This document shows, piece by piece, positions 23,947-60,700 of a DNA stretch of 64,000 nucleotides. Each line of letters opens with the position of its first letter. Within the stretch, counting starts at the first letter, position 1. Source of the stretch: a virus; the IMG/VR virus record IMGVR_UViG_3300038429_000225, positions 28,428-92,427 of that record; one strand, 5' to 3'. The position numbers and the translations under genes were made by a program. Below the pieces are notes generated by a model. The model saw only the letters and a program-made list of their open reading frames with translations. It ran no database searches and was not told the origin of the DNA.

Positions 23947-25089
23947 CCCGCTAGCGAGCACAATCCCAGACTTTAGTCTGGGTAAGCGAGCGATATTATG
24001 ATCCAAGCTCAACTCAAACTTCGACTCAACAAAAAGCAGGAAGCCTTGCTTGTGGGGTGGCTGTGCAACTTGACAGGCGTGTGGAATTGGGCTGTGCGCA
24101 AAATCGAACTCAATGCCAAGGACAAGATATACTTCAGTGCAAAAGATTTTCAGAATTTACTTGCAAACCATGGCGAAAAACTGGAGATACCTTCGCACAC
24201 GTTGCAAGGCATTCTTTCACAGGCGCATCTGGCGTGGACACGTTGTTTCAAGAAGATTGCCAAGCGTCCGCATCTCAAAGGGCAAAGAAACAAGCTCAAT
24301 AGCATCCCGTTTCCAGACCCCATCAAACCGCCGAAGGATAACTACATCGGCTTGCCGGGGCTTGGGAAGGTTCGTTTCCACAAACAAGAGTTGCCGGAAG
24401 GGAAAATCAAGTGTGGTCGTATCGTTAGGCGTGCCAGCGGTTGGTATCTGTGCTTGTTCATCGCAACTGACCGCGAACCTATCAAACGTGTTGGATACGG
24501 AAAGATTGGTATCGACCCCGGATTCAAGGCGTTGCTCACGATGTCGGACGGGGAAGTCGTAGACCATCCTCGGGAACTCGAAGCCATCGAACATCGGTTG
24601 GCTCAAGCGCAACGAGGGCACGACAAAGTGTTAGCGGCTCGTCTCCAAGAGAAGAGAGCGAACCAAGTCAAAGACCGCAATCACAAACTTTCGTTGCGTC
24701 TTGTTCAAGAGAACGTAGTGATTCGTTTTAGTGCAGACAACCATAGGGGTGTGGCACACAAGTTTGGGAAGTCAGTTTCATCGTCTTCCCATTATCAGTT
24801 GCGTCAGATGCTTTCGTACAAGAGCCGTGCAGGCGGTACGGAATACGACGAACCTGATTCCAAGTTTTCCACCATGACCTGTTCTGTATGTGGGAGCCGT
24901 TCTGGTCCCGCAGGATGGGGCGGGCTTGCGGTAAGGCAATGGCGTTGCTCAGAGTGTGGAACTCTGCATGACCGCGACGTAAACGCGGCTCGTAACACGC
25001 TGTTTGTCGGGGCAGGATATGCCCACGAGGTGCAACATGCCAACGCATGATGCAGTCAGGAATCCCAGAGCTTGCTCTGGGAGTATCAA
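23947..25089 (+). mobile_element. Non-autonomous IS200/IS605-family (tnpB-only) element
   Basis: Left end TGAA|...CAAT + hairpin CCCAGAC-TTTA-GTCTGGG; right end GAAT + hairpin CCCAGAG-CTTG-CTCTGGG...TCAA. This matches IS608-type guide/cleavage pairing. No tnpA. Confidence 0.85.
23998..25050 (+). CDS. tnpB: TnpB RNA-guided nuclease-family protein (RuvC-II Glu not evident)
   Basis: RuvC-I GIDPG, Zn finger TCSVC...WRCSEC, RuvC-III HDRDVNAARN. Confidence 0.92.
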   Translation: MIQAQLKLRLNKKQEALLVGWLCNLTGVWNWAVRKIELNAKDKIYFSAKDFQNLLANHGEKLEIPSHTLQGILSQAHLAWTRCFKKIAKRPHLKGQRNKLNSIPFPDPIKPPKDNYIGLPGLGKVRFHKQELPEGKIKCGRIVRRASGWYLCLFIATDREPIKRVGYGKIGIDPGFKALLTMSDGEVVDHPRELEAIEHRLAQAQRGHDKVLAARLQEKRANQVKDRNHKLSLRLVQENVVIRFSADNHRGVAHKFGKSVSSSSHYQLRQMLSYKSRAGGTEYDEPDSKFSTMTCSVCGSRSGPAGWGGLAVRQWRCSECGTLHDRDVNAARNTLFVGAGYAHEVQHANA

Positions 25090-33972: not shown

Positions 33973-34023
33973 TTCAGTAGTTTCTCAATGGAAGCCTGGA
34001 GCAGGGCTTCCGTGGAGGTACTA

Positions 34024-34590
34024 ATGAAAACGACCATCGTAGCAGCATCCTTGCTGATGATTCTATCAGCCCTGGCCGGTTCCATAGTACGTTATGGAGA
34101 ACCCGACGCGCCAAAACCTATCTCAGTGCGGATCTTAGCTGAGAAGGATATCAAGGAAGGATTCAAGCATGACCAAAAAAGAAAGCAGATACAGCGCAGT
34201 ATTAAAATCGCGAGACTCGTTTATCGACAGCTTGGCTGCCGCCCGACTTACGCGGAAGCAACGGGAAGAATTGCTGTTGAGTACAATCTCCCTGCTCGTT
34301 TACTTGCAGCGGTTGTTTTTGTCGAGTCGTCATGCAACCCGAACGCGGTCTCCGATCGCTACTCAGTTGGGCTTACGCAAGTCAACCCAAAATATCACCG
34401 CTACACTCGCGCGGAGCTCAAAGACCCGCAACGTAATCTCGAGATCGGTGCCAGCATACTTTCGACATACATTAGGCGATATGGTTTAATCGAAGGCCTT
34501 CACGCATACAACGGCTTTGGCAATCCGACGGATGAATACTCCACGAAGGTTTTAACGGCAGCGGGAATCAAGATTGAGGCGAAAGGATGA
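34024..34590 (+). CDS. Lytic transglycosylase (SLT domain)
   Basis: AVVFVESSCNPNAVS, GLTQV, NLEIGASIL, AYNG; N-terminal TM. Confidence 0.88.
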   Translation: MKTTIVAASLLMILSALAGSIVRYGEPDAPKPISVRILAEKDIKEGFKHDQKRKQIQRSIKIARLVYRQLGCRPTYAEATGRIAVEYNLPARLLAAVVFVESSCNPNAVSDRYSVGLTQVNPKYHRYTRAELKDPQRNLEIGASILSTYIRRYGLIEGLHAYNGFGNPTDEYSTKVLTAAGIKIEAKG

Positions 34591-34714
34591 ACCGTAAATA
34601 CATCGGCATTATGTGGGCGATCCTAGCTCTCGTGCTTACGATTGTCTGCGTGAAGCAGCGGGAGACGATCGAGAAGCAGACACAGCTTATTCGAACCCTA
34701 TGGCGGGATTGTCA

Positions 34715-36817
34715 ATGAGAATTATTTGGCGTAACGAACGATTCGAGATGGAAGGTGAGGATACTTATGCTGCGCGCGAAATACTCAAACAACACGGCTT
34801 CTGGTGGGACCGGGAAAAGAAAGCATGGTATCTTGTCGCCGGCGCACGTCTGTCCGGTCTTCGGGGACTTCTACAGTGTACCATCTCGTCGGAAGCGTAC
34901 AAGCACTACCAAGAAGCCGCGAGTATTGCACAAAAAGCCATAGAGGCATCGAGGGCGACGGACGCAGAGATCAAGATTCCGTGTCCTCCAGGCTGTGAGT
35001 TTCTCCCGTTCCAACGCGCCGGGATAGCGTATGCCATTAACCACAAGGACACGTTGTTCGGAGATGAAATGGGGCTTGGGAAAAGTATAGAAGCAGTGGG
35101 GGTTGTCAATGCCGATCCTTGTGCTCGAACGATTCTTATTATTTGTCCTGCGACTCTCAAGCTTAACTGGAGGAACGAATGGATGAAGTGGGACATTAAA
35201 GGGCTTGAAGTTGAAATTATCAAGCCAGACACTAAAAAGTTTCCTGACACTTCGGTGGTCATTTTGAATTATGAATTACTTCCTAAGTGGCAGAAAGAAC
35301 TTCGGCAGCACGAGTGGTCAGTGATGATTGTTGATGAGGTCCACTATGTAAAGAATCCCTCAACGACCCGGGCCCAGGAGATATTCGGTCGAAAGCGCGC
35401 GGTCAACAAAGAGAAGCCCGATGGTTCAATCATTAAGTGCGAGCAACTCGATCCCATTCCTGCGAAGCGCCGACTGTTCCTTACCGGGACACCAATCCTC
35501 AATCGTCCGATCGAACTCTGGCCCATCATTAAGGCTTTGGCTCCGAAGTTTGAAAAAGACAAACGAGCTTTCGGAATGAAATATTGTGCAGCTCATCACA
35601 ATGGTTTTGGGTGGGATTTTAAAGGTGCATCCAACCTAGATGACCTGCAACTTAGGCTGCGCGCTTTATTCATGGTGCGCCGGCTCAAGAAAGACGTGCT
35701 CAAGGAACTGCCCTCAAAGAGGCGTCAGGTTCTGGTGCTTGAGTCCAAGGGCTTAGATGAAATTCTTGAAAAAGAAAAGCAGACCTATGAGCAGTATAAG
35801 GAGGCTCTTGCTGAAACTAATTTTGAAACGCCGGCGTTTGCGGAGATGTCCAAAATTCGTAAGCAAGTAGCAATAGCAAAGATACCGTTTGTAATAAACC
35901 ACGTTGAAAATATTTTAGAAGAAACAAGCAAGATCATTATTTTTTGTCACCACAGAGAAGTAGCTACACAATTAGCGGAGAGACTCGATGCCACCCTTCA
36001 AAGACTTAACAGGAAAGAAACACGGCAGATGGACAATTTTAAGACGCGGATCAAATTCACTTGCAGGAGTAGTTCAATGGGAGTGCCGATGTCAGTGCGG
36101 CAGAACCCAGATAGTGGCTCTATCAAACAAAACGATGGGGCGCATGAAATGTCGCCCTCGAAAACACGGACTAGCCAGAACACCGATGTATCGGCTATGG
36201 ATCAATGCTCGGGTACGTTCTCTAAAGAACGGAACGGAATTCACGATTCAACCCCAGGACATCACGATTCCCAAGTACTGTCCATTACTGGGAATACCTC
36301 TGAAGGCAGGAGGAAGAACACACCCAGCGAATCCATCACTAGACAGACAGGATCCAACGAAAGGGTATACTCCAGACAACATTTGGGTGATCAGTTGGCG
36401 AGCGAACTTGATGAAGAGCAACACCACAAAAGAACAACAACTGCAATTTGCAAAAAGTTTGCTTCAGTTGTGGTCATCACTGGAGAAACGAAAAACGAAG
36501 ATCGCCAAGAAGCAGTCGATCGTTTCCAGAATGACCCCAATTGTCGAGTCTTCGTTGGTAGCATAAAAGCGGCTGGCGTCGGTCTAACACTAACTGCATC
36601 AAGTACTGTGATCTTCGCGGAGTTAGATTGGGTACCCGGCAATGTTTCGCAATGCGAGGACAGAGCACATCGCATCGGTCAAGTTGACTCCGTGCTGATT
36701 CAGCATCTGGTCCTTGAAGGATCTCTTGACGAGCGCATGGCCCAGCTCATCATCCAGAAGCAGGAAGTAATTGACAAAGCGTTAGACGAACCGGAGGGAA
36801 AAAGTGCTAGCATTTGA
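34715..36817 (+). CDS. SNF2-family (SMARCAL1/HARP-like) helicase with an ~158-aa insertion
   Basis: DEMGLGKS, DEVH, LTGTP, MVRRLKKDV, IFCHH, ITG, GVGLTL, QCEDRAHRIGQ. Confidence 0.92.
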   Translation: MRIIWRNERFEMEGEDTYAAREILKQHGFWWDREKKAWYLVAGARLSGLRGLLQCTISSEAYKHYQEAASIAQKAIEASRATDAEIKIPCPPGCEFLPFQRAGIAYAINHKDTLFGDEMGLGKSIEAVGVVNADPCARTILIICPATLKLNWRNEWMKWDIKGLEVEIIKPDTKKFPDTSVVILNYELLPKWQKELRQHEWSVMIVDEVHYVKNPSTTRAQEIFGRKRAVNKEKPDGSIIKCEQLDPIPAKRRLFLTGTPILNRPIELWPIIKALAPKFEKDKRAFGMKYCAAHHNGFGWDFKGASNLDDLQLRLRALFMVRRLKKDVLKELPSKRRQVLVLESKGLDEILEKEKQTYEQYKEALAETNFETPAFAEMSKIRKQVAIAKIPFVINHVENILEETSKIIIFCHHREVATQLAERLDATLQRLNRKETRQMDNFKTRIKFTCRSSSMGVPMSVRQNPDSGSIKQNDGAHEMSPSKTRTSQNTDVSAMDQCSGTFSKERNGIHDSTPGHHDSQVLSITGNTSEGRRKNTPSESITRQTGSNERVYSRQHLGDQLASELDEEQHHKRTTTAICKKFASVVVITGETKNEDRQEAVDRFQNDPNCRVFVGSIKAAGVGLTLTASSTVIFAELDWVPGNVSQCEDRAHRIGQVDSVLIQHLVLEGSLDERMAQLIIQKQEVIDKALDEPEGKSASI
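35988..36566 (+). CDS. HNH homing endonuclease nested in the +1 frame of the helicase
   Basis: DLTGKKHGRWT...WECRCQCG (N-terminal domain), HG.ARTPMY, CPLLGIPL...PSLDRQDPTKGYTPDNIWVISWRANLMK; SD GGAG at 35977-35980. Confidence 0.88.
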   Translation: MPPFKDLTGKKHGRWTILRRGSNSLAGVVQWECRCQCGRTQIVALSNKTMGRMKCRPRKHGLARTPMYRLWINARVRSLKNGTEFTIQPQDITIPKYCPLLGIPLKAGGRTHPANPSLDRQDPTKGYTPDNIWVISWRANLMKSNTTKEQQLQFAKSLLQLWSSLEKRKTKIAKKQSIVSRMTPIVESSLVA

Positions 36818-36892: not shown

Positions 36893-37378
36893 GTGAAAGC
36901 TAGCACCATCACCAAAATTCATCTCGTCTGCCCGGTCTGCAAAGAGCCCGGGCATTGCATTGATTATCTCGAGGCCGGCCGTTCGACAATTGCGGATTGT
37001 GATCACTGCGGCGCCTACTTCAAACTGTCACGCCGCGCGACCACCCTGGCTCCATCCTACGAGATCGAAGTGCTGAAAGAAAAGAAGCAGCGAGTAGTTG
37101 TCACTCTTCAATCCACTACCGAACCACCAATCACGCTTAAGGTGAATGATTGGATGTACCCAAGTCCTGACGTGCTGTTTTATCAGTCCAGGGAAAGCGG
37201 AGTCCGATCTGAGACCCTCCAGGAGTTTTGGGAGAACAAGAAATATTACTACAATTTTCATATTTGCCCCTCGTCAATGTTCAAACAGGTCGAAGAAGTC
37301 ATCGTTGAAGACGGGGCTGATCCGCACGGATTGTTTCAATTTGTTTCGGTAGAACTCCCGAAGGAGGAAGATCAGTGA
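36893..37378 (+). CDS. Zn-finger hypothetical protein
   Basis: CPVC...CDHC; RBS GAGGAG. Confidence 0.6.
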   Translation: MKASTITKIHLVCPVCKEPGHCIDYLEAGRSTIADCDHCGAYFKLSRRATTLAPSYEIEVLKEKKQRVVVTLQSTTEPPITLKVNDWMYPSPDVLFYQSRESGVRSETLQEFWENKKYYYNFHICPSSMFKQVEEVIVEDGADPHGLFQFVSVELPKEEDQ

Positions 37379-38526
37379 GCACCGCAACACACAGAGTTGA
37401 CATTGTACGCATCAAGGAAGTTCGGGTCCACCCGAATGCTGACAAACTAGAGATCATCCCGATCGAAGGCTACCAGGCAGTCGTGGGCAAAGGCCAATTC
37501 AAGGTGGGCGACCTAGGATACTACATTCCGCCGGACAGCGTTGTGCCTGATCGGCCGGAGTACGATTTCCTATGGAAAGGCGCGGTTGAGGGGCCAGTGC
37601 CTATAAAGCGGCGCCGTATCGCAGCCAAGCGACTCCGCGGCGAGTGGAGTGAAGGCCTACTCATGCCAATAGAATGCTATGATATGAAGGACGAAAGCGT
37701 GTGGTTGGTCACAAAATCAGACCACGAAAACATGCGGGTAAAAGAGGGAGATGATGTTGCCGAGTTCCTGGGCATCACGCACTACGACCCGCCCGAAGAT
37801 CAGGTTGCCACGGGCACCAACGAAGGCGCGGTACGCGGCCCGAAGATTCCCCGCACGTTCCGCGGATGGGTCAACTTCATTAAACGGTGGGCGCACGGCG
37901 AACGCCGCGAGGGCGGTCCAGCCCTGCCAGTCTACGACGTGGAAGCGCTCAAGAAGTATATGCACGTCTTTGAGGAAGGTGAGCAGGTTTACGCCAGCGA
38001 GAAGATTCATGGCAGCAACGCCCGCTATTCCTACAGTAAGGGCTTCTTCGGTTGGGGCCACATGTACGCCGGCAGCCGTCAGCTTTGGAAGGCACTCAAC
38101 TCCAACTGCACCTGGCGCCGTGCGCTTAAGGACAATTCATGGATTGAAGAGTGGTGCAAGAAGCACCCAGGCTATGCTCTCTATGGCGAAGTGACGCCAA
38201 CCCAGAAAGGATTCGAGTACGGGTCGAACAAGGTGCAATTCTTCCCGTTCGACATTCGGACGCCCGATGGTAAATGGGCCGAAGTGTGGGGCCCGGAGTG
38301 GGGTTGGGAAAAGATCTTTACTCACAGTCCCGCTATGCTTTATGATGGACCTTTCGACTTCGAGAAGTTAAAGGCGCTGGCCGACGGCCCCTCGCATGTT
38401 GAAGGCACCAAACACATGCGTGAAGGCATCGTGATCAAGGCTGTGCCGGAGCGTGAGGCCCACAACCTGGGTCGCGTGCAACTCAAGATCGTGAGCAACA
38501 CGTTTTTGGAGAAGGATGCCAAGTGA
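37375..38526 (+). CDS. ATP-dependent RNA ligase (DRB0094-like, N-terminal OB fold)
   Basis: HPNADKLE, SEGLL, motif I EKIHGSN, LYGE, FDI, REGIVIK, LKIVS. Confidence 0.88.
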   Translation: MSTATHRVDIVRIKEVRVHPNADKLEIIPIEGYQAVVGKGQFKVGDLGYYIPPDSVVPDRPEYDFLWKGAVEGPVPIKRRRIAAKRLRGEWSEGLLMPIECYDMKDESVWLVTKSDHENMRVKEGDDVAEFLGITHYDPPEDQVATGTNEGAVRGPKIPRTFRGWVNFIKRWAHGERREGGPALPVYDVEALKKYMHVFEEGEQVYASEKIHGSNARYSYSKGFFGWGHMYAGSRQLWKALNSNCTWRRALKDNSWIEEWCKKHPGYALYGEVTPTQKGFEYGSNKVQFFPFDIRTPDGKWAEVWGPEWGWEKIFTHSPAMLYDGPFDFEKLKALADGPSHVEGTKHMREGIVIKAVPEREAHNLGRVQLKIVSNTFLEKDAK

Positions 38527-38699: not shown

Positions 38700-39623
38700 A
38701 TGAAGTTCGTGGAGCAGGCGCCAATCTTTTTTGAGCGGATCCAAACGCGCAAGCGGCACCCGGTAAAACCGGCGACGCTATCGGCGTATCGGAATGCGAT
38801 CAACAGTTGGATCCTTCCATCGATCGGTCAGCAGGATCTGGAGACGTTTAGCAACGGCGCTCTCAAAGCCTTCATCCACAAGTTGACTGTGTTGCGCAAG
38901 TCTCCGGCCACAATCCAGCAGATCGTTACCGTTGTGAAGTCGATAGTAGCCTCCGCAGTCACGCCGGAAGGGGACCTGTTGTATCCTCGAATCTGGAACA
39001 ACGCCTTCCTCGATCTTCCAGATATCGGGCCCCAGAAGGCTCCTACGCTCACCCAGGAGCAGCTTAGAGCTGCCCTGCGGTCTGAGCACGGCGTATTCTA
39101 TGCCTTCCTGGCAGGTACTGGCCTTCGTATTGGGGAGGCCCTAGCCGTACGATGGGGAGATGATGGCACGCATACCTGCCTGGACCCCGAAAACGCTGTG
39201 GTGCGTGTCCGGACAAAGCTCTGGTACAAGCAGGAAGGGACCCCTAAAACCGATGCCGGTATTCGAGAAGTCGACCTGGACCCTCGATTGAACGCCCTTC
39301 TGTCGTGTGCTACAACCACTGTGGCAGGCGAGCCTATATTTAACAAGGATGGAAAGTTTCTGTGCGAGGGAACTATGCGGGCCCATCTTAAGTCCCTGGG
39401 TATTTGTGGCTTCCATACCTTTCGACGTTACCGCATCACGCGGCTCCGCGAGCTAGGGACGCCGGAAGACATTGTTCGATACTGGGCAGGCCACGCTGGA
39501 GGCGGCATCACCGATCGGTACAGCAAGTTGGCCGAAAACAAAGAGCTTCGGAAGCAATGGGCCGTCCGGGCCGGCCTGGGATTCGAGTTGCCGGAAATTA
39601 AGAAGGAGAAAAAAGATGAATGA
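38700..39623 (+). CDS. Tyrosine recombinase/integrase
   Basis: TGLRIGE (R), PKT (K), HTFRR, AGH, DRY (Tyr); SAM-like N-terminal domain. Confidence 0.9.
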   Translation: MKFVEQAPIFFERIQTRKRHPVKPATLSAYRNAINSWILPSIGQQDLETFSNGALKAFIHKLTVLRKSPATIQQIVTVVKSIVASAVTPEGDLLYPRIWNNAFLDLPDIGPQKAPTLTQEQLRAALRSEHGVFYAFLAGTGLRIGEALAVRWGDDGTHTCLDPENAVVRVRTKLWYKQEGTPKTDAGIREVDLDPRLNALLSCATTTVAGEPIFNKDGKFLCEGTMRAHLKSLGICGFHTFRRYRITRLRELGTPEDIVRYWAGHAGGGITDRYSKLAENKELRKQWAVRAGLGFELPEIKKEKKDE

Positions 39624-43568: not shown

Positions 43569-46500
43569 TTACCTCAAATCGCCGTAGACACTTTGCAATT
43601 TGCGCCACGTCGGATCATCCGCGCGTTGAGCCGCGGTATGTTGTTTCATATATTCAACACGCTTTTTCCACAACATATTCGACAACTGATCCTTCTCGGA
43701 TTTTCCCGCAGCATCCCAGACGTTGATCGCTTCGGATAATGGGAGTCGATCGAAGCGCGCTTGCAGCGGAGACAGGGGGGCGCGACGAATGATCTCATCG
43801 GCGCGGCGCTTTGAAACATGCTGCATGATCTCGCCCTTGCCAATCTTTCCGGCGCGGTATGCGTCTTCAAGACGGATATCTTGCTGGTGGGCCTTAAGAT
43901 GTTCCGGGTCCACGGGTCCGGTCGGCATTCGATCGGAGGCATATTGCTCAGCGAGTTTCTCCGCTTCTGTTTTGTAACGACGAACGGTTGCACCCATACC
44001 TTTGTAGACTTGATCGAACGCGCTAACATCGCCGCCCTTAATAATCCCTTGGCCCACAATAGGAATGATGTTTCGAACAAGATCCGAAGCCTGTTGATCG
44101 AACGGAGCACGTCGTCCCATCGGGTCGCGTCCAGTGAGACCTTCCACCACAGGACGAACTGTCAATGGATTAACACGACCAAAGAGAAATTCTCGAGGAG
44201 AACTCATAGCATGGATAAGGTCCGTAGGCAATGTACGAATGCTGTAGATTTTTTCGTTACCCTTCTCGTCCTTAGAAGCAACGCCGAACGGAGCTTCGTT
44301 GTGCATCTGTCCGCTGGTGAGCATATTGATTACGCGAGCACCTAGCCAGATCGCAGCCAGTTGCTTGACCATAATCTTTCGGGAATATGCACCTGTCTCT
44401 TTGTCCATTAATCCAAGTGCTCGAGCACCCATTCTCATTTCGGATAGTAGCCAATCAGGTGCCAGGGCTATCATGCGCGCGAAGTCTTGCTGTGACGCAG
44501 ACCAGCCAAGCTTGCGCCAGTTCTGTCCACCGAACACGTCATTGACGGTATCAGCCGCTCGAGATGCCGCTTCGTCCGCGGTAAGATGCGGATGGTCGTT
44601 ACGCATATCGTCGAATATTTTTAGATATGCCCGGTCCTTAAGACTGGGGATGTAATCGTTGAAAAGGAAACTCTGTAACTTTCCTTGGAATTGTTTGAGG
44701 CCTGGGATCGCATTAATGATACTGGAGTGACTGGCCATACCTGTGGAGAATTTGTCCTGGGCTTTGTAGTCGTTGCGAATCAAGCCTTGCCGAACACCGC
44801 GACGCAAAGATTCACTGATCGCGGGGTCATTAATATCCAGATGTGATTTATCTAAAGGATTGATACCGACCATCATCGCGCGCAAAGATTCCTGCACGAG
44901 GTGGAACGGAGAGATAGACAACAGAAGGCCTTTTGCCTCGCCGGCCGCTCTGTTGGCAGCAGAAAGTGTGGGACTATTGCGCACGACGCTTCGATCGGCG
45001 TCAATCACTTGCCGAACAAACTTCTCGTAGTCTGGGTGGACCAGTAGATCGCCTCGCATGATTGCGGGATTGCCGGCCGTGTCCTGGCCCGCGTAGCCCC
45101 AGGCGCGCGTGTGCTGACTGTCAATCTTCACGTAGCCGTCAGACGAATACGCGTATGCTGGGATCTTCTCGCCTTCCTCGTTCTCAATGGTCCAGGGCAG
45201 CTTGTAGATGATGCCCTTGTTAAGTCCGTCCTGTAAGTCGTTGGTGCCCGTCTTCGGGTTGATACCCTCTCGCATCTTCTCCACGATCTCGGGAGATATG
45301 TTGATTGTTTTCACGGACTTAGGGTCAAGAGCTACCGCGGGGTTATTGGTCTCAGCACCCATGACGCGCGCGGTTCCGGCAAGGACAGCGGCTGGCCGCC
45401 CGTCCGGTCCCTTCGCACCCTTGGTGCGCAGGGCTTCCAAGAACTTCCGTCCGGCGATCGCACGATCGATTCCGACCATGTGGTCGTAGGCGTGCTTCGC
45501 CAAATCGTCGTGTTTGAAAACTTCGCCCGCCATCACGCCCTCGAACTCTGTGTTGTAGACGCGATACTTGGCTTGATTGATGTTCGTGGAGAAGTGTCCA
45601 GCGTCAGCGTCATAGCGCAGACGATTGAGCGCCTGGTTGGTAACCTTTTCAGGAGCCTTCCCAAACACCTTGTTCCACATGCTGTTGTCTTCGCCAGCCC
45701 AGGCCTGGGGATGATAGGCTTCCACCCATTGATGGATCAAACCGTTCTCATAGGCCTTTTGGAATGAGTTGTCATAAAGCTGACGCAGCATCTTGGCCAT
45801 TGATTTGTCTTCTTCGGTCATGCGGTTGATTGCATAATCGAGGCCGGCGAGATACTGATCACGCTGCTTGGGTGTTAGCTGACTGTTGAACCGAGAGTTG
45901 TCACCCGGTAGATCTTCCGCGCCTATTGGACGCAGCGGAGTAGAATGACTAGTGAGATTGCCCTCTTCGTCGCGCTCCAGTATGTGACCGGGCATGTGAC
46001 GTTTCGAGGCGACCAACATGTCGTCAGGCACAGGGCCCGGACGCAGAGCTCGAGGCGCAAGTTTCTCTATTGGGATTTTGTCAAGATCGATACTGTACTG
46101 AGGGCCTAAAAAGTCCTTTTCTCCCGTAGGATTGTGGTGCTCAACATCAAACTCTTTATCGAGAGACTCCCACACATGGCGCGCGTCAAGAGATGTAGCA
46201 CCATTTTCGTCGCTGGTAAATTTGTGAAGGCCATGTTCTTTCGCGATCCGCATGGCTTCGATGTACGCGGCTTTCGCATAACCACGGCCACGATACGAGG
46301 ACTTCTCGCCAGATTTAAGGTCAGATTCAACACCAGAAATATTCATGTGCGCAACATCTTCAGCATCTACGTTTACAAGGAATCGCCCGACTCTGTCATT
46401 CTTTATGTTGTGCAAGCCAACTTCATAACTTCTTCCTTCCGCCGCCCCTTTATTCAAACCTTTTGTCTCTGACCGAAGCTCTACACCCGGATAAACTTCA

Positions 46501-48332
46501 ACCGGGCCCGCGGCACCGCGAGGAGTTTTCCCCATCGTCTTAGCATTCGATTCGCGCACGTCAGCTTCGATCTCCGCGCGCGGAACAGCCAAGACTGTAA
46601 GATCTTTTCTGTTTCCACTGTCAGGAAGAGTCGCTTTCTTGAGTGCTTCGTCTGGTGTAGCAAAATACTGAATGTTGTTCTTCTCTGTGCTGACACCGAT
46701 ACCCGAAGTGCGAATCTGCTGCATGTTCTTTTTGTCGACCGCGACATAAGCGTGCTCGCGATTCCAAGTTGTGTTCGCGGCCTTCTCGTAGTCCGCAACC
46801 GGACGATACTGGTCGTTCTCCAGAGCGATTACCTTCTGTGCTCCGTCTTTTGCTTTGAAGGTGATGCCGTCATAACCAGAGTCTTTCAGCTTCTTCCGCA
46901 TAGCCTCTTGCGCATCGGCCCACGCCTCTTTCGTTGGCTCCGCAACACCCTCGCCTTTCTTTTCGAGAATTCCTTCTTGCTCCCCTATCTGTTGAATGTA
47001 CTGAGTGAGGCCTGCCTCGCCGCGCATATTGATAGGATTCTCAATCCGAACGTACTGCTGATCGCCGGCTTCACCGGTGGCAGACAGCGTCTGGCCAAGT
47101 TTGTGTGTACCCGGTACGGCATCGGAAACGTAGAGCTCGACCGGTTTTCCGTGTTCATCTTTATAGAGGCTCTTCGACGCCCATTGGCGCAATTCGGTCC
47201 CGGCATCTTCATTCGCCTGCTCTTCGGGCGTCAATGCGCGCGCCTTGAGTGTACCTTCTGCGATACCCTTCATCTTTGCGATACGGGCCGCGTCTCCGTC
47301 CTGGGTGACCCAGTGTCGGATGCCAGCTTCACGAATAGGATCATCCCCGCCGCTGGCTTTAAGCAGTCGTAAAATTTCTTCCTGACGTGCGCGCGCAGCG
47401 TCGGAGCCCATTTGAACTTCTTCGTCATGCAATCCGGCCGCTTCCTGGACCAGTTTGAGGCGTTCGTTTGTAGTCAGATCCTTGCCGTTGATGTAGCTCT
47501 TGACAGCCTTGACGTCTTCAAGGCCGTGCTTCATGCCTTCTTGGATGAAGGCGACGCTGGCTAGGATGTTTGTTCCAAGACGAGTAGCGTTCTCCACGTC
47601 CCCATCTTTCAGGGCATCCAAGAACTGAGGCGACTGGGTCATCAAGCCACCAAGCATTTGTGTAGTGAAGCCAGCTGTTAGAAGACCCTTGGCTGTACGC
47701 GCCACGATCGGTGCAGCATATTCGTTAACGCCGATGCTCTTAAGGATTCCAATTCCAGCGCCTTCAACTGTGGAACCGCCGAAGGATGCGATTGTCAATC
47801 CGATCATCAGGGGAGATGTGAAGCTGGATCCGATATCCTCGAGACCGGTTTCAAGACCACGTTCAAATGAGCCGGCGCCTTCGCGCGTGCCCCACTTGTG
47901 CAAATCGTAGAGAGGAGAATTCATCCACTCCCACGCCTTGCTGTACCAGGGCTCGTCGTCCATTTTTTCAGGATTCGTTTGACCGTAGGCTCGCTCTTCG
48001 CTAGTAAGGCCGCGAGTTGTGGCGCTGTTTGAATACTTGTCGGTTGTGTCGTGTGTCCCGAGACCGGCAACAGGTAGGCTCATCCAATCTGACGTACCCG
48101 ATACGACGGGCGCAGCGGCGGTCATAGCAGCAGGCTGTTCGACGGCTCCGGTTGTCGGAAGTGACATCCAAGAAGGTTTTTCTGTTGCTACAGATGTACT
48201 TCTAGCTGTTGGTAAAGACTTCCAATCTAAATCGTCCTTAGCCGCAGCAGGGACACCAGAAGGTGTATCCGCGGCTGGGCTTGCTGATCCGCCTGCTACC
48301 GGAAGATTTTTCCAATCATCTTGGGGCGCCAT
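43569..48332 (-). CDS. Large internal-virion/ejection polyvalent protein (degenerate ART-like modules + GNAT)
   Basis: 1587 aa; N-terminal W.SLP repeats; YVRIENP...GYDGI; GNAT motif YRGRGYAKAAY...A..VWESL; helical C-terminal region. Confidence 0.72.
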   Translation of the reverse strand: MAPQDDWKNLPVAGGSASPAADTPSGVPAAAKDDLDWKSLPTARSTSVATEKPSWMSLPTTGAVEQPAAMTAAAPVVSGTSDWMSLPVAGLGTHDTTDKYSNSATTRGLTSEERAYGQTNPEKMDDEPWYSKAWEWMNSPLYDLHKWGTREGAGSFERGLETGLEDIGSSFTSPLMIGLTIASFGGSTVEGAGIGILKSIGVNEYAAPIVARTAKGLLTAGFTTQMLGGLMTQSPQFLDALKDGDVENATRLGTNILASVAFIQEGMKHGLEDVKAVKSYINGKDLTTNERLKLVQEAAGLHDEEVQMGSDAARARQEEILRLLKASGGDDPIREAGIRHWVTQDGDAARIAKMKGIAEGTLKARALTPEEQANEDAGTELRQWASKSLYKDEHGKPVELYVSDAVPGTHKLGQTLSATGEAGDQQYVRIENPINMRGEAGLTQYIQQIGEQEGILEKKGEGVAEPTKEAWADAQEAMRKKLKDSGYDGITFKAKDGAQKVIALENDQYRPVADYEKAANTTWNREHAYVAVDKKNMQQIRTSGIGVSTEKNNIQYFATPDEALKKATLPDSGNRKDLTVLAVPRAEIEADVRESNAKTMGKTPRGAAGPVEVYPGVELRSETKGLNKGAAEGRSYEVGLHNIKNDRVGRFLVNVDAEDVAHMNISGVESDLKSGEKSSYRGRGYAKAAYIEAMRIAKEHGLHKFTSDENGATSLDARHVWESLDKEFDVEHHNPTGEKDFLGPQYSIDLDKIPIEKLAPRALRPGPVPDDMLVASKRHMPGHILERDEEGNLTSHSTPLRPIGAEDLPGDNSRFNSQLTPKQRDQYLAGLDYAINRMTEEDKSMAKMLRQLYDNSFQKAYENGLIHQWVEAYHPQAWAGEDNSMWNKVFGKAPEKVTNQALNRLRYDADAGHFSTNINQAKYRVYNTEFEGVMAGEVFKHDDLAKHAYDHMVGIDRAIAGRKFLEALRTKGAKGPDGRPAAVLAGTARVMGAETNNPAVALDPKSVKTINISPEIVEKMREGINPKTGTNDLQDGLNKGIIYKLPWTIENEEGEKIPAYAYSSDGYVKIDSQHTRAWGYAGQDTAGNPAIMRGDLLVHPDYEKFVRQVIDADRSVVRNSPTLSAANRAAGEAKGLLLSISPFHLVQESLRAMMVGINPLDKSHLDINDPAISESLRRGVRQGLIRNDYKAQDKFSTGMASHSSIINAIPGLKQFQGKLQSFLFNDYIPSLKDRAYLKIFDDMRNDHPHLTADEAASRAADTVNDVFGGQNWRKLGWSASQQDFARMIALAPDWLLSEMRMGARALGLMDKETGAYSRKIMVKQLAAIWLGARVINMLTSGQMHNEAPFGVASKDEKGNEKIYSIRTLPTDLIHAMSSPREFLFGRVNPLTVRPVVEGLTGRDPMGRRAPFDQQASDLVRNIIPIVGQGIIKGGDVSAFDQVYKGMGATVRRYKTEAEKLAEQYASDRMPTGPVDPEHLKAHQQDIRLEDAYRAGKIGKGEIMQHVSKRRADEIIRRAPLSPLQARFDRLPLSEAINVWDAAGKSEKDQLSNMLWKKRVEYMKQHTAAQRADDPTWRKLQSVYGDLR

Positions 48333-53804: not shown

Positions 53805-56800
53805 TTAAATGATTCCTTCCACCCATGCCTCATATAAGCACGCATGAGCCGCCGAACTAGCCGTTGTTCTGTGAATCGTTATCTGCACCCGAACAAGAGA
53901 TAGATTGGTGTTTACTGGGATGGCAAAAGAATCCGTTGTCAAGGCCCGCGTAGTTCCTGTAAGCGAATAAACAGTGGTTACAACGACTCCTGCTGTACCA
54001 TAACCTAAAGTCACCACGTTGTCACCGGAAGAGGTGTTTACGGACGACCGTATATAAAGCGTCAAACTGGTCCATGGAGCAGAAGTTGGACTTGCGGCAG
54101 ACAATGTAAATGTAAACGTTGCTGCTGAAGTTGTTGACCCAATTACTTCTGCGTAGGTTGTCAAGTCTCCATCGATTGCGTTATTCGGGTTATTTACAGT
54201 AGCGCCCGCAACGCTATTGTTAACCGCTGCGCCAAAAAGAAAGATTGAAGTTGCACCACTTTGAGCGCCAACTCCACCGTCGTTATTTCCGACCGTATCT
54301 GGGCCACCCGCCGCTGGAGTCACAATCGACCCGACAAAGAATCTTCCTGCACCATTGATAGCTGTAGTTTTTGAAGTTGTTGCAGCATACGTAACTGCAC
54401 CGCCCGCTAAAGTCGCATCATCAAAATAGATGTAATAGAGCGTCGAATAAGAAAGTGCAACAACACTGCCAGAATTTTCGTTTATATCGCCTTTGCTACT
54501 AGTGCGCATCGTAAACGCAGCAATCGAAACCGTAGCACTTGACCCTGCATCTGTTGCGGTCAAAGGGTTCGTTAACGGACGATACGTCAGCGTGCTGGCT
54601 GTTGCGCTGAAATTCGCTGGGCCGTCCTTCGTATCCGTACCTAACTCAGAAACAAACGTAACATTATGATTATCGAACTCCACAACGCCGCTTGCTGTGT
54701 CACCATAAAGCTCGAATGTGGCGTAGACAGTTCCAGCGGGCGCAGTGTAGGTATTTGAAATAAAGGTCCATGAACTTGAAGTTGTTCCTTCTACCTGCTG
54801 TCCGACTGCTGTGCCTGTTGCGTCACGAAAACTAACTTGCACATAAGCGTGGCCGCCGCCCGAATTGACCTTAGCGTAAGCACTAGCATAGAATGTGTCG
54901 CCTGGCTCACAATAGACTTGACCCAACGGGACAACGCCGCCATAACTGCCCACTGTTGCTGATGCGGTGATTTTTAAACTTTGAGTGCCCGCGTATTGCG
55001 TGCTAGTGTCATACGCATAAGTTGCAGTATGATTGCTGTAAGTGCTATAGCCTGGGGGCGGAAGAATCGTGGCGCTCGATTCAAAATTTCCGTTTTGAAT
55101 TACCGAGTCGCCGACGTTGAATGTTCGTTTACCATACACTGAACCGTCAGCAAGATTATCTAGTGTTGCGGGACCAACCAACTGCCAATATGCGCTTGTG
55201 GCGGGTGGTGTTGGAGGCGTATTTCCCGTTGTTGCCTGGAGGGCTTGAAAGATGTTGCCGTTGTATGTGACTTCCATACCTTGAAGATAGGCCGTTCCTC
55301 CAGCATACGCACCGATCAGAATGGTTGATGTGCCAAGCAGTGTCCAGTAGGAAGATGCGATTGAAGGTGCATTCCCTGTCGAGGCAAGAATGCAGATCCA
55401 GAATGACCCCTCGTAGCTCACTTGGTTACCGGCGACGTAAGCCGTTGCGCCGTTGTATGCCCCCAGATAAATTTCAGAAGTGGCTATTTGCTGCCAGTAT
55501 GTTCCGTTCGTAGGAACATTTCCGGTTGACGAAAGGATGCAGGTATAATAATTTCCGTTGTAAGTAACTTGGTTACCGGCGACGTAAGCCGTTGCGCCGT
55601 TGTAGGCACCAATAAAGGCACTGTTATTAATATTGACCAATTGCCAATACGTAGCGTTTGTAGGCGCATTTCCGGTTGACGCAAGAACACAAACATAGAA
55701 ATTGTTCTGATAGGTAACTTGGTTTCCAGCCACATAAGCCGTGCCTGCATTGTAGGCTCCCAGAAATTGACTATTTGTTCCTATCAGTGTCCAATAAGTT
55801 TGATTCGTCGGGAGGTTTCCAGTTGACGCCAGAATGCACTTGTAAGTCCCACCCAAATAGGTGACTTCGTTTCCAGCCACATATGCCGTGCCGCCGGCGT
55901 AGACGCCAAGAAGAACAGATGACGTTCCGGTCAATTGCCAATACGTTACGTTCGTTGGAAGATTCCCAGTCGAGGCGAGAATGCACTGATAAACGTTGCC
56001 GAGATAAGTAACTTCGTTGCCTTGAACATAAGCCGTTGCGCCGTTGTAGACGCCTAGAAGAATCGCACTGGTCCCAACCAAAACCCAGTACGAACTGGTT
56101 GTGCTAGGCGCGTTGCCTGTGGTATTGCTGACGCAAATCCAGTACGAACCTTGATAGGTAACCTGATTTCCCGGGACATAACTTGTTCCATTATTGTAAT
56201 TCCCTGTGTAGAGATAAGTGCTTACGGATCCTACGATCTGCCAATAAGTTGGAGAGATGTCTGGTTGGTCGTTGGTGGAGGCAAGGGTGCAGATGTAATA
56301 TCCACCACTATACGTGACCTGATTTCCTGGGACATATGGCGTTATGCTGGACCAACCACCAAGAAAAACGTCATTCGAACTTGAACCTGTGCTCTGCCAA
56401 TAAGTCGCGTTCGTTGGGAGATTTCCTGTGCTCTGTAAAATACAAGTGTAGAACTGACCGCTGTAGGTGACGCTCGACCCCGGGAAATAGGTAATCGATC
56501 CACTGTAGGCGCCCTGATAAGCGATTGTGCCGCTTTGAACCGCTCCGCTTTGCGCAGCCCTAAGCGTAGATTCAAGTTGCTGTAGGTTCTCACAAGAAAC
56601 CCAGTAATAATAAACAAGTCCCGCGGCTACAACATCCGTGAACACGTTTGTGCCGGTTCCGGTGGCCGGCTGAGGGATGGTAGCAATGAGAGTCGCTGTG
56701 GCTGAATTGTTGACCGTGTTCCTGTACACTCTGTACGAATCAATTACATCGTGCAGAGGATCTGACACGATGTTCCAAGAGAAAGTCAAACCTGAATTAC

Positions 56801-57527
56801 ATGGAGCCAAAGCAGATGCAATCGTAGGCGCCGCAGGCGCGGTCGTCACGCCATCCAAAGTCACATTGATCGTTGGGCAAGAACTAAAATCGTTATCGAC
56901 GCCATTCACAGAATAGGACTGAACCGTTAGAGTCACGATTGATCCGTCGATTGGCAACTGACAAATCACCGGAGAAGTAATACCAGTTCCAAGACCTCTA
57001 GGTTCGTCTCCAGGATAAGTCACCCAAATACTTACTCCCGCAAACACGTCTATAGTAGGATCACCTGTAAGAGCCGGAGGAGTAAATGATATTTCAAGAG
57101 CTTGCCGAAGCACGCCCGTACTGTCCTTGAAGACAGACTTTGAAACAGCGAGTCCCGTAACAGACCCTGGCTGTGCGCCCGCGGCTGCGATAGCCGCAGT
57201 ATTTGCCTGCACTTGTTTGTGGACAGGACCAAGCTGCTTCGAAGTAACAGAAGATGATGCCGCATTCGTTGCCGGATTTGCTTTAGTAGGAAGAGGAGGA
57301 AAACGACTTTGAGACACACCGCTGGGACGAACGAACTGACGGATGCTATCATACGGCGTTGTGAAAGAAGATGGCGCAGGGCCCATTGAACCAACAGCAA
57401 GACCACCCTCTCCGCGAGGATTTGGAACATAGGGAACCGGGGACGGCGCACCCGCCACTATGGGCGCAACTTCTATCTGCTCACCAACGTTCGCGGGTTT
57501 CTTTGTCGCGTCCTTAAGACTTGGCAT
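53805..57527 (-). CDS. Tail fiber/host-attachment protein: Fn3-like + 9 CBM5/12-like repeats + CBM4_9-like domain
   Basis: Fn3-like SYRVYRN...YYYWVS; nine ~49-aa Y..GN.VTY.G..Y.C..STGN.P...YW repeats; IQNGNFES...GTQSLKIT. Confidence 0.8.
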   Translation of the reverse strand: MPSLKDATKKPANVGEQIEVAPIVAGAPSPVPYVPNPRGEGGLAVGSMGPAPSSFTTPYDSIRQFVRPSGVSQSRFPPLPTKANPATNAASSSVTSKQLGPVHKQVQANTAAIAAAGAQPGSVTGLAVSKSVFKDSTGVLRQALEISFTPPALTGDPTIDVFAGVSIWVTYPGDEPRGLGTGITSPVICQLPIDGSIVTLTVQSYSVNGVDNDFSSCPTINVTLDGVTTAPAAPTIASALAPCNSGLTFSWNIVSDPLHDVIDSYRVYRNTVNNSATATLIATIPQPATGTGTNVFTDVVAAGLVYYYWVSCENLQQLESTLRAAQSGAVQSGTIAYQGAYSGSITYFPGSSVTYSGQFYTCILQSTGNLPTNATYWQSTGSSSNDVFLGGWSSITPYVPGNQVTYSGGYYICTLASTNDQPDISPTYWQIVGSVSTYLYTGNYNNGTSYVPGNQVTYQGSYWICVSNTTGNAPSTTSSYWVLVGTSAILLGVYNGATAYVQGNEVTYLGNVYQCILASTGNLPTNVTYWQLTGTSSVLLGVYAGGTAYVAGNEVTYLGGTYKCILASTGNLPTNQTYWTLIGTNSQFLGAYNAGTAYVAGNQVTYQNNFYVCVLASTGNAPTNATYWQLVNINNSAFIGAYNGATAYVAGNQVTYNGNYYTCILSSTGNVPTNGTYWQQIATSEIYLGAYNGATAYVAGNQVSYEGSFWICILASTGNAPSIASSYWTLLGTSTILIGAYAGGTAYLQGMEVTYNGNIFQALQATTGNTPPTPPATSAYWQLVGPATLDNLADGSVYGKRTFNVGDSVIQNGNFESSATILPPPGYSTYSNHTATYAYDTSTQYAGTQSLKITASATVGSYGGVVPLGQVYCEPGDTFYASAYAKVNSGGGHAYVQVSFRDATGTAVGQQVEGTTSSSWTFISNTYTAPAGTVYATFELYGDTASGVVEFDNHNVTFVSELGTDTKDGPANFSATASTLTYRPLTNPLTATDAGSSATVSIAAFTMRTSSKGDINENSGSVVALSYSTLYYIYFDDATLAGGAVTYAATTSKTTAINGAGRFFVGSIVTPAAGGPDTVGNNDGGVGAQSGATSIFLFGAAVNNSVAGATVNNPNNAIDGDLTTYAEVIGSTTSAATFTFTLSAASPTSAPWTSLTLYIRSSVNTSSGDNVVTLGYGTAGVVVTTVYSLTGTTRALTTDSFAIPVNTNLSLVRVQITIHRTTASSAAHACLYEAWVEGII

Positions 57528-57722: not shown

Positions 57723-60700
57723 CTAGCGCTCCTGGTAAAGGGCTCCGAAAATGCTGAATGCCTGAAGCTCGTTCTGAACAGTGTCGTTCCCGAAATCCAC
57801 CTTGATCTGCAGGAACTTACACCACGCCGGAACAGGTTCGTTGTTTGGGTTTCCTGGAGATGTTTGGCCAAAATAATACCTGTTCATCCACAGGGTTTTC
57901 GGTGTTGCCAACGGCCCATACATTTCAGGAGGATCGGAAATGAATTCGTTTGAGATGGCTTCGAATGTTGCTCCGTTTGTAGCAGACATCTCGTCGAGCA
58001 AAACCAACACGGTGGGCTGAGTCCCAACTTGTGTGAAGTCGCATTCTATGAACGCGAGTTCAGCCATTTGCCCCGGGTGGGCTAATACAATGTTACCCAT
58101 CGCGAGCCAAGAATCATACGAGCTTCCGTTATCTTCGAAAACGGTGAAGTTAGAATCGCGCGCAAGAATGTATCCGGCCGCAGACGGGCCGATCAAAAGT
58201 TGTTTTACGCCCGGTGATGTTTCGATCGACATAACAGCTTTGAAACCGGCCGCCACGACTGCTTTTGGACTCCAGATGGGTCCGGTTAACTGGCTGTCAG
58301 GCGTTGGGTTTGGATCGCAGCGATACCATTCACTGATGCCGTCAGCAATAAATAAAGCATGCTCCTGGTCCCCAAAGCTTTGATACGTCACGTAAGTAGA
58401 CGCAGGATCGTAGGCAACAAGTTTGTTTCCGATCGGATGGCCGATTCGAGTAAACCCGCCACTAGGATCAATCGTTATGAATTGACGGTCGGATGAGAAA
58501 AGATAAGGAAGCCCGAGCATCATTGTTACCGCGTTCCAGAATAGCAGCCCAACTCCGGGAGCCAGCAATTGAGAGTAGAAGTCTGCTATCGCAGGGCCAC
58601 CGCCAATCAAAAAGACATCGGTGGTCGTGAAGACGAGCAAACACGACGCTGTGGGCATTAGCCGTAAGACTTTGCTATCAAAAGGAAATGCGTTGATTGC
58701 CGGCCAAGCTACGAATCCGTTTGCGTTGCTGGTGTCCGGACCTCCGGAAGCAAATACCGTGTTGCCAATGAAACCCCACAGTCGACCGAGATAATAGACC
58801 AAACCAATCATTCCGGTTCCAGCAGCCGCAGTTGTTGAGCCACTAGATGCGGGCGTAAACTCTGAAGAGCCAAAAGATCCCGGAGGCGGAGAATTTTCTT
58901 GATCAACCGCAGCCGTCTCAAGAGGGTCCAGACCTGGTAGTAAATTTGTTGGTAGATCTGGCATGAAGTCGATAATCGAAATAGTACCAGGAAGCGCACC
59001 CTGCATAGGCGGCATGTTAAGTGCAGTCAAGAACAAATACGGGCCGGAAGCCCCAAAGCCATCCGCAGATCGAAACACCAAAATAGTATCGAACTGAGGA
59101 TCGGTAGATCCAACCATCGTGATTCTAACTTGTTCCGCACCCACGCTAGGGCCTATGATTTGAGTTAACGGAGACGCGTTTGTAACAGTTCCGCTTTGGT
59201 TTCCGAACGGAGGGCCGAGAGGGCCGGTGATGTTCGGAGAATTTGTGTTTGGCATCTGTAACGGAGGAGAGTTCGTGTTCCAATAATCTGACGCTGCGCG
59301 CGCAGCATAAGCATAAACGTAGCCGTATCCGTTTGTCCAAGTAAACCCTGCTGCCGTGAATACAGACGCCGCAAACCACGTAACAGTGTTATCTGTGGTG
59401 GTAGATCCAATAGCCTGCCAGGTTGGATGCGGAGCAGTTTTGCTTTTACCAGAATTGATGACATACTGGTTGACTCCATTGGTGTCGACCAGCGTAGCCC
59501 CGCCGTATGCTTGTGATTGCTGTGGCGGAACAAATCCGCCATCTGGATAATACCACTGTGTGGCCGGAGCCCACGAAAGTGAAGTTCCTACGCAGGTCCA
59601 CGTGACGCCGATAAATGCCGCTGTTCCGGGGTTGGTTCCATCTTGTGTCTGCTGCCCGTATCCTGTCTCAAACGTTGGTGGCGCAGCGCCACTGGGACCC
59701 GTTGCAGATATACAAACATGAAGATTTCCGCCATCAAGAACAACCGAAAAATTAGTTGAACCAAAACCCCAAGCAAGATAGTTGTGGTGAGCAGCCCACG
59801 TCGAAGAGCCCAAACAATTCCACACTAAATCGCCGTCCAAAGTTGGGTTGCCTGCACTCGTATCCCAGCTGGGTATATAACCAGCAGAATTTCCAGACGT
59901 TCCACCAGAGGAAACCCACAAATAAACCGGTGTTGCATTTGGAGACCCGAGGCCGGCCGCTTGAATAGTTGTAGGTTCAACGACGCAGTGTGTCGCCCAC
60001 GAACTACCGGCCGCGTTTCGCGCAGGATAGGCGTGACTTTGAAGCCATACACCAGGAACTTCAGTACCAGGTTGACCGAGACAATACCACTTTATGCTTC
60101 CGTCATTAAAAATAGATCCATTGACGCCATTGAATTGCGGTTTCGTTCCGCCGCTGACTCCAGAAGCAAAGCCAGGATTGTCTACGAAATAAATTGAGTT
60201 AGAAGCAGGATCATAAACTACCGATGGGGCAATATCCGTTCCACCGATCGTGTAGTTTGTATACGCGTGATTTGGAAGCCACGTAGAAATCGGACCCCAG
60301 TTTGTCCAGGTAATAGGGGTGCCGGTGGATTCCGTGACCGACGTTCCCGAACCGCCGCTGAAATCCGGAGCCCCGTTTCCGCTTGTTCCAAGATTGGTAG
60401 AATTGGTGCCAGAAGCATTCACAGAAACAAGCTGTTGAACGTTTCCATTAGCGTCAACAATCAATCCCATGGTGGTCCACATCGTGCTGGCAGCCCAAGA
60501 AACGCCCGCAGAGCCTGTCGGAGTAAGCGCCAAGACAGGAGCTACCGTTGGTCCCACCCCACCCATGTTCCATACAGGCGTGCTAGTTTGAGGGTTCGTG
60601 ATGCCTGGGGTGTATGTTACGAAATCAACGCCGTCAGAAATATACAAAGTCTGACCGATACCCTGAAAATAGCCTTCACCGGCACCGGCAGATTTCGTAA

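Follow-up and report, generated by a model that had tools for sequence, protein, structure and literature searches.

An HNH-like endonuclease frame overprinted on a stop-free insert in a phage SNF2 helicase gene

The helicase gene and its insert

The DNA considered here is a stretch of 64,000 nucleotides (nt), positions 28,428 to 92,427 of the IMG/VR virus record IMGVR_UViG_3300038429_000225; the whole of this stretch is referred to below as the window. Our subject is a helicase gene that carries an insert, and a second open reading frame (ORF), apparently for an HNH-like homing endonuclease, that is overprinted on the insert in another frame. The helicase gene and the features within it are on the + strand. 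The gene occupies positions 34715-36817 and specifies 700 amino acids (aa) from a likely ATG at 34715; the longest ORF (34613-36817, 734 aa) begins with a GTG, and gene calls made on metagenomes give lengths of 700, 701 or 734 aa. The ORF matches the Pfam families SNF2-rel_dom (PF00176; 2.5e-28) and Helicase_C (PF00271; 8e-15), the latter match picking up again at profile position 34, past the gap made by the insert, and in PHROGs it belongs to phrog_62, DNA helicase (5e-102). The host gene is a SNF2-family helicase of superfamily 2 (SF2), with both its N-terminal ATPase domain and its Helicase_C domain present. Its comparison with cultured phages by blastn gave a single short match.

A search of 5.8 billion proteins revealed close insert-free homologues (P0002, P0003 and P0004; 529-540 aa, 75-93% identical) that are shorter by 159 codons, and alignment with these defines the insert as positions 35987-36463, or D459-A617 in the helicase frame. 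Its junctions fall after ...LAERL (KIIIFCHHREVATQLAERL) and before SVVVITG (SVVVITGETKNEDRQ). The 5' flank, KIIIFCHHREVATQLAERL (35930-35986), aligns as the motif IV strand and the helix that follows it, which in an AlphaFold model (700-aa numbering) form a strand at residues 407-411 and a helix from residue 414, the native part being modelled with a high predicted local distance difference test score (pLDDT). The site of insertion is the loop between this post-motif IV helix and the next beta-strand, in the second RecA-like lobe. The insert is present at this site in nine of the 119 best helicase homologues and missing in the other 110, and the helicase motifs 3' of it are still conserved (invariant alignment columns). 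The insert-bearing allele itself recurs in one further contig (L083) and, from several sources, as 14 metagenome proteins that are near-identical; a one-off artefact of assembly is thus excluded.

In the +1 frame relative to the helicase, an ORF of 192 aa (35988-36566) begins on the second base of the insert. The Shine-Dalgarno (SD) sequence that would serve it, GGAG at 35977-35980, is built from the helicase codons GCG-GAG-AGA (A455-E456-R457) and lies 7 nt before the ATG. A Pfam search with the +1 ORF gave no match; in PHROGs it belongs to phrog_3322, 'endonuclease' (E = 1.9e-31), HNH and Endo VII families matching more weakly. An AlphaFold model made with 22 relatives has a pLDDT of 87, and in both structure searches its best solved-structure match was the HNH restriction enzyme PacI (Foldseek E 6.8e-3, probability 1.0; VIA-align Z 7.1, root mean square deviation 3.2 Å over 89 aa), followed by the Gme HNH nickase (Z 5.3). 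The model, with structural matches of moderate strength, points to a PacI-like beta-beta-alpha-metal fold. Across the family, N131 is invariant, D119 and N140 are nearly so, and the canonical position of the first histidine is occupied by D-R in all members. The possibility that the HNH ORF is spurious was rejected.

Much of this anatomy had been anticipated in a sequence-only reading of the same DNA, which placed an insert between the motif IV region and the VVITG strand, saw a complete-looking HNH endonuclease in the +1 frame, and traced the GGAG to the helicase codons A-E-R. The coordinates, the PHROGs match and the model bear it out on all three counts, and the insert-free alleles from which it expected the junctions to be read do exist (P0002, P0003 and P0004, together with the contig L093, described below).

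Five lineages and an open host frame

When IMG/VR was scanned with the HNH protein, 80 loci were recovered, one of which (L001) has an HNH ORF similarly embedded within a helicase gene. The most constrained dual-coded stretch of the window's insert is 36384-36407, which the HNH frame reads as WVISWRAN and the helicase frame as LGDQLASE: 22 of its 24 bases are shared between the window and L001, despite their HNH proteins being only ~42% identical, and among 81 loci compared the codon pattern recurs in the embedded L001 only. It was used as the seed for finding other lineages, by means of a DNA pattern that combined the dual-coded WVISWRAN codons with codons for the helicase residues D/E-R-F-Q beyond a gap, an open helicase frame not being required. 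This search gave six metagenome contigs representing four lineages, the window's own among them. With L001, the layout is known in five independent DNA lineages: window/L083, L001, L084/L087, L085 and L086/L088.

All five have the insert at the same helicase site, with the HNH ORF in the +1 frame and its start codon at the 5' junction. The start is an ATG taken from helicase codons for N-G or D-A (TTG in L085), and in four of the five lineages (L001, L084 and L088 as well as the window) the ATG is preceded, at a distance of 6-7 nt, by GGAG or GAGG. The HNH proteins of the different lineages are 42-56% identical to one another, and that of the window is 42-45% identical to the four others. When the same DNA is compared between lineages in its two readings, identity amounts to 42-55% in the HNH reading and to only 23-35% in that of the helicase. 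It is accordingly the HNH protein that is under purifying selection, the constraint on the helicase reading being mainly that it remain open.

The lineages differ in where the HNH ORF ends. The sequence-only reading had put its stop about 100 nt into the resumed helicase sequence. This is right for the window, in which the stop is 100 nt past the 3' junction, and does not hold as a general feature: in L001, L088, L085 and L084 the stop is at -2, +1, +13 and +31 nt, respectively, relative to that junction. The C-terminal tail of the window's HNH protein is thus peculiar to its own lineage, and lies over the resumed helicase codons (SVVVITGETKNEDRQ...; 36464-36566). There, after the loss of a stop near the 3' junction, the HNH frame runs on for ~33 more codons over a helicase strand and helix (VVITGETKNEDRQEAVDRFQ...). 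This segment is an instance of true double coding, both frames encoding conserved or structured protein.

One of the five loci is more elaborate. On contig L085 (5468-10225, - strand; Ga0163144_10007410) a single open helicase frame of 1586 codons contains three insertions: an intein-like one in the GLGK P-loop that matches LAGLIDADG_3, an intein-like one before MVRRLKKD that weakly matches Intein_splicing, and the out-of-frame HNH insert.

In the window, the helicase frame has no stop in the 158 codons overlapped by the HNH ORF, and the third frame has 12. Shuffling of synonymous codons in the HNH ORF gave a helicase frame without stops in four of 10,000 trials (P = 4e-4), 5.7 stops being expected, and this value is near the naive chance of 5e-4 given in the sequence-only reading. 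Over all five lineages there are no helicase-frame stops across 158-170 overlapped codons (third frame 4-14), and the probabilities of this in the per-lineage permutations were 4e-4, <1e-4, 2e-3, 0.035 and 0.13. The means by which the frame is kept open can be seen in the codons themselves. When the lineages are pooled, none of 191 HNH codons that precede AA, AG or GA ends in T, vs 112 of 622 elsewhere (Fisher 9e-15). By comparison, 57 distinct free-standing relatives have 3-41 stops (median 20) in the equivalent frame, and T-ending codons make up 33% of their codons before AA, AG or GA and 36% elsewhere. These comparisons show the case to be real and under selection, with codon choice in the HNH ORF keeping the helicase frame free of stops.

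The peptide specified by the insert in the helicase frame is strongly hydrophilic (grand average of hydropathy, GRAVY, -1.2). The equivalent frame of the free-standing relatives is already hydrophilic (median GRAVY -0.82), its hydrophobic fraction following GC content, and the comparison with these relatives gave no clear sign of extra selection for loop hydrophilicity. A naturally hydrophilic alternative frame may pre-adapt this HNH family to being read through. When the 700-aa helicase is modelled by AlphaFold, its core scores a pLDDT above 90, and residues 449-561 and 568-577 (within the insert) fall below 50, at ~30, with no confident structure. The insert is accordingly predicted to be a disordered, hydrophilic loop.

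Might the insert instead be removed by splicing? No Hint or intein family of Pfam was matched by the insert in any of the five lineages (E <= 0.1; E <= 0.01 for the window), nor was any Pfam domain found in the window's insert in the helicase frame; as a positive control, the two other inserts in the L085 helicase do match LAGLIDADG_3, Intein_splicing and Hom_end_hint. The first residues of the five inserts are D, S, N, G and N, their last two residues FA, GV, TG, YP and SP, and the residues that follow them S, M, I, C and V, so that neither a conserved Cys or Ser at the first position nor a His-Asn end followed by Cys, Ser or Thr was found in these lineages. Searches with Rfam covariance models revealed no intron family in the window region (E <= 10) or in four loci (E <= 0.1). 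Since the HNH ORF fills the whole insert, there is no room for splicing domains or a ribozyme. An intein was rejected as an explanation on the absence of a Hint signal and of conserved junction residues, the 23-35% identity in the helicase frame and the pLDDT of ~30; an intron was rejected on the absence of an Rfam match and of space outside the ORF, and because an intron would not be expected to show selection for a stop-free host frame.

The remaining structural claims of the sequence-only reading fare equally well. The run of about 158 helicase codons without a stop, the disorder-like loop, the missing intein signature and the lack of room for a group I or II ribozyme all survive the wider comparison, and the depletion of NNT codons before AA, AG or GA that it suggested looking for is there. 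Homologous inserts freely carrying stops, which would have spoken against it, did not turn up: the four further, diverged lineages are all open, in keeping with its picture of a dual-coding insertion whose host frame has been purged of stops.

Distribution, mosaic flanks and rival explanations

On a tree of 124 helicase sequences, from which the insert columns had been removed, 14 insert carriers fall in nine separate places (nine state changes), and the window's nearest relatives are insert-free (support 0.997). The carriers known as proteins are P0007, P0038, P0040, P0049, P0054, P0064, P0065, P0080 and P0091; to judge from the protein sequences alone, P0007 and P0038 have shortened inserts in which the helicase frame is still open, and which may be decayed homing endonuclease genes. 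The embedded HNH proteins of the five lineages, together with the copy adjacent to the L093 helicase gene, make up one clade on the HNH tree (support 0.86). The two trees disagree: the HNH of L001 is closest to that of L085, and their helicases are not sisters.

The helicase gene of the window is also a mosaic. Its product is 98-100% identical to the insert-free P0002 over residues 46-377, 55% over residues 378-458, and 69% after the insert. A nucleotide comparison is possible with L093 (IMGVR_UViG_3300037993_000292), an insert-free allele of the same phage lineage with syntenic downstream genes. Identity to L093 is 98% up to position 35626 and then declines stepwise to 44% at the junction, so that 35627-35986 forms a diverged upstream flank, presumed to be a co-conversion tract. 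The downstream diverged flank takes up the remainder of the helicase gene (36464-36817), with 53-69% identity to L093 through the stop codon, and the sequence past the stop also differs. Such mosaic flanks are consistent with the pattern expected from co-conversion during homing.

L093 has an HNH gene of its own. It is free-standing (L093:874-1443, 189 aa), belongs to the same clade as the embedded copies, begins 17 nt before the helicase stop codon, and is followed by an extra 75-aa ORF (1440-1667). Both are missing from the window, in which 75 nt separate the helicase gene from the next one. In the frame equivalent to that of the helicase, the L093 HNH has five stops vs 12.2 expected (P = 0.002), a frame in which most of the free-standing controls match expectation. 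This depletion looks as if it could possibly be a relic of a formerly embedded life, and suggests that a homing endonuclease gene might pass in either direction between a place inside a host reading frame and one outside it. It is conceivable, though we hold it only tentatively and would not call it likely, that embedded and gene-adjacent positions are interconvertible states of a single helicase-targeting HNH clade.

Taken together, these findings make it likely, in our judgement, that the insert is a minimal HNH-like homing element, situated in the +1 frame of a SNF2 helicase gene at a surface loop of lobe 2 and read through without splicing. The helicase mRNA would then be read in two ways. 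Ribosomes in the helicase frame would pass through the 159 extra codons and yield a helicase of full length in which ~160 aa form a hydrophilic, disordered loop, neither RNA nor protein splicing being involved, and other ribosomes would initiate at the internal GGAG-N7-ATG to give the 192-aa HNH protein. During co-infection, this protein would cut insert-free helicase alleles of related phages, and repair from the insert-bearing allele would copy the ORF together with helicase flanks on the scale of a few hundred base pairs. Only inserts of 3n bases without an in-frame stop would leave the helicase usable, and because the helicase must stay usable, selection would remove T-ending HNH codons that precede AA, AG or GA.

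Several points weigh against this interpretation, or weaken it. Taken singly, the permutation probabilities are weak in two GC-rich lineages (the values of 0.035 and 0.13), and since the five lineages share ancestry the pooled codon test is not fully independent. In L085 the start codon is TTG, not ATG, and the SD sequence is poor. The first histidine of the HNH motif is replaced (by D-R) and Pfam gives no match, so nuclease activity is assumed from the PHROG names and the moderate fold match to PacI. The divergence from L093 runs to the end of the helicase gene and L093 has its own HNH gene downstream, so either element may have caused the exchange. All of the evidence is in silico.

How else might the arrangement be explained? 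The HNH protein could be a domesticated partner, a conserved nuclease that is expressed together with the helicase in an accessory role and kept for the benefit of the phage, not for homing. That would fit with an HNH ORF that is intact in five lineages whose helicases are ~40% identical, with a constant site and frame, and with embedded HNHs that form one clade (support 0.86), and non-selfish phage roles do exist for HNH proteins, according to PMC11855218. It is difficult, however, to see why a beneficial partner should be present in only nine of the 119 best homologues, its carriers scattered over the helicase tree (nine state changes), why a sister allele that is 98% identical upstream should lack it, why shortened inserts should exist (P0007 and P0038), or why flanks should be mosaic and the HNH and helicase trees disagree over L001 and L085; we regard this explanation as improbable. 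Cryptic splicing, by an unrecognised intron or an atypical intein, would need the open frame only in a precursor. Inteins must likewise keep the host frame open, true inteins occur in the related helicase of L085, and inteins with out-of-frame endonucleases are known (bioRxiv 10.1101/2025.01.02.630785). Nevertheless, the HNH ORF spans the whole of an insert of 159-172 codons, with no separate coding for splicing domains; the junction residues are variable, with no Cys or Ser start and no His-Asn end; the helicase-frame peptide is hydrophilic, 23-35% identical between lineages and modelled with a pLDDT of ~30; neither Hint/Intein families of Pfam nor Rfam models were matched; and an intron would need no stop-free frame. 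Splicing therefore seems to us more doubtful still than domestication.

Finally, the insertion could have inactivated the helicase, the open frame being a coincidence or an artefact of assembly. For a single window the case against chance would amount only to P ~4e-4, with many windows scanned. The idea would have to account for five lineages that are all open with inserts of 3n length, for helicase motifs that are conserved 3' of the insert, and for the occurrence of the allele in 14 metagenome proteins from several sources, and we consider it very improbable indeed. A homing element that is read through in the helicase frame is the explanation that we carry forward in what follows.

Known systems and the surrounding sequence

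The layout has a published precedent. Arsenault, Gosselin and Gogarten (Genes 2025;16:178; PMC11855218) described the ShiLan domain in a mycobacteriophage DNA methylase, and a second insertion in gp60 of phage Pacc40, a helicase-methylase. As described there, these elements are HNH ORFs lying out of frame with a host gene whose own frame gains no stop from them; they show no intein or intron signature and are predicted to form a loop, and related phages (Tiff81 and Sashimi) have a similar free-standing HNH gene beside the uninvaded gene. The splicing-free layout is already in print for phage methylase and helicase-methylase genes, and the suggestion in the sequence-only reading that the window reveals a route beyond those in the literature has to be given up. 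The likeness extends to an alternative-frame endonuclease ORF that fills a stop-free insertion in the host gene, an in-frame product predicted to be a loop or disordered, a disjunct distribution suggestive of homing, and a free-standing HNH beside an uninvaded gene (L093 here, Tiff81 and Sashimi there). Moreover, the hidden ORF of Pacc40 (L089:3474-3953) shows distant homology to the window's HNH, in the N-terminal module of the latter (tblastn E 3e-7, 31% over 129 aa).

There are also differences. In Pacc40 the insert is in a helicase-methylase and precedes Helicase_C, whereas that of the window is in lobe 2 of a SNF2 helicase, after motif IV; the hidden ORF is in the third frame in Pacc40 and in the +1 frame here, and on the HNH tree the Pacc40 ORF belongs to a different subclade from the HNHs embedded in helicases. 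PMC11855218 proposes a leaderless GTG, without a ribosome-binding site, as the start for ShiLan and Pacc40, in contrast to the canonical SD sequence and ATG built here from host codons, and it places its elements in actinophages, whereas ours are in uncultured environmental phages. No codon-level test was found in the available text of that paper, to set beside the synonymous permutation, the NNT avoidance and the free-standing controls given here. What is new in the present case is the host gene and site, the canonical SD and ATG, and explicit codon-level evidence of selection.

In tblastn searches with the HNH protein, its family proved to be widespread among cultured phages in free-standing form, under the annotations 'endonuclease' or 'HNH endonuclease'. 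Of the cultured-phage matches listed, just one, the published hidden ORF of Pacc40 gp60, is embedded in a host gene, and none lies inside a SNF2 helicase. A Ralstonia phage match listed under 'primase/helicase' was rejected as a further instance, being an unannotated free-standing ORF upstream of that gene.

The free-standing homing endonucleases of the seg and mob families of phage T4 spread by intronless homing, and either sit between genes or split a gene. Like them, the window's HNH is a stand-alone endonuclease ORF without a self-splicing carrier, and in both cases co-conversion of flanks, presumed for the window, leads to mosaic genes; unlike them, it is inside an intact reading frame that would be translated through. 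A different kind of resemblance is to non-canonical inteins that have their homing endonuclease on a separate ORF, out of frame (bioRxiv 10.1101/2025.01.02.630785), such as a cyanobacterial dnaX intein with an out-of-frame endonuclease (bioRxiv 10.64898/2026.09.14.751524). In these too, a gene for replication or for a helicase has an in-frame insertion overprinted with an endonuclease, both frames being open, but their host-frame product is a self-removing intein with Hint domains, and here there are no Hint signal, no conserved junctions and no room for such domains.

The window provides a further case, independent and with good statistical support, of a way for selfish genes to persist that was recognised only in 2025, namely life inside a host gene without an intron or intein, the host frame being made readable. 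Here the host is a core replication/repair gene, for a SNF2 helicase, of uncultured environmental phages; the arrangement persists across helicases that are only ~40% identical, uses an ordinary SD sequence and ATG built from host codons, and leaves a clean codon-level footprint of selection in the absence of T-ending codons before AA, AG or GA. Gene callers annotate the 700-aa helicase only, and the putative nuclease escapes them. It is worth reading unusual 'disordered inserts' of phage enzymes in their other frames, and the NNT-avoidance test provides a simple screen for further elements of this kind.

Some observations on relatives of the HNH may be added. In Pacc40 gp60 (L089:2710-6735) weak matches to Hint_2 (residues 931-975) and LAGLIDADG_3 (residues 1133-1184) precede the methylase motif, and this protein probably also hosts an intein. 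Two further loci, L073:3001-3486 and L074:3001-3486, have HNH-family ORFs of the Pacc40-like subclade. The first nine residues of the L073 protein are those of the window's HNH (MPPFKDLTG), and it has three stops in the equivalent frame vs 9.3 expected (P = 0.003). L020 (2932-5134) and L021 (2296-4498) have 696 stop-free codons in another frame, starting within a free-standing HNH ORF; they may represent a large gene that is located downstream and overlaps the 3' part of the HNH gene.

We turn lastly to the setting of the helicase gene in the window, where its neighbours are of phage-like or mobile character. It has a transglycosylase gene on one side (33988-34590) and an RNA ligase gene on the other (37375-38526; phrog_968, 3.5e-41), beyond which is a gene for a tyrosine integrase (38700-39623; phrog_1), and a transposase gene is found at 23998-25050 (phrog_506). 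Large ORFs occupy 43569-48332, 53805-57527 and 57723-61073, on the - strand. The window looks like metagenomic DNA of a temperate phage or of an integrative element.

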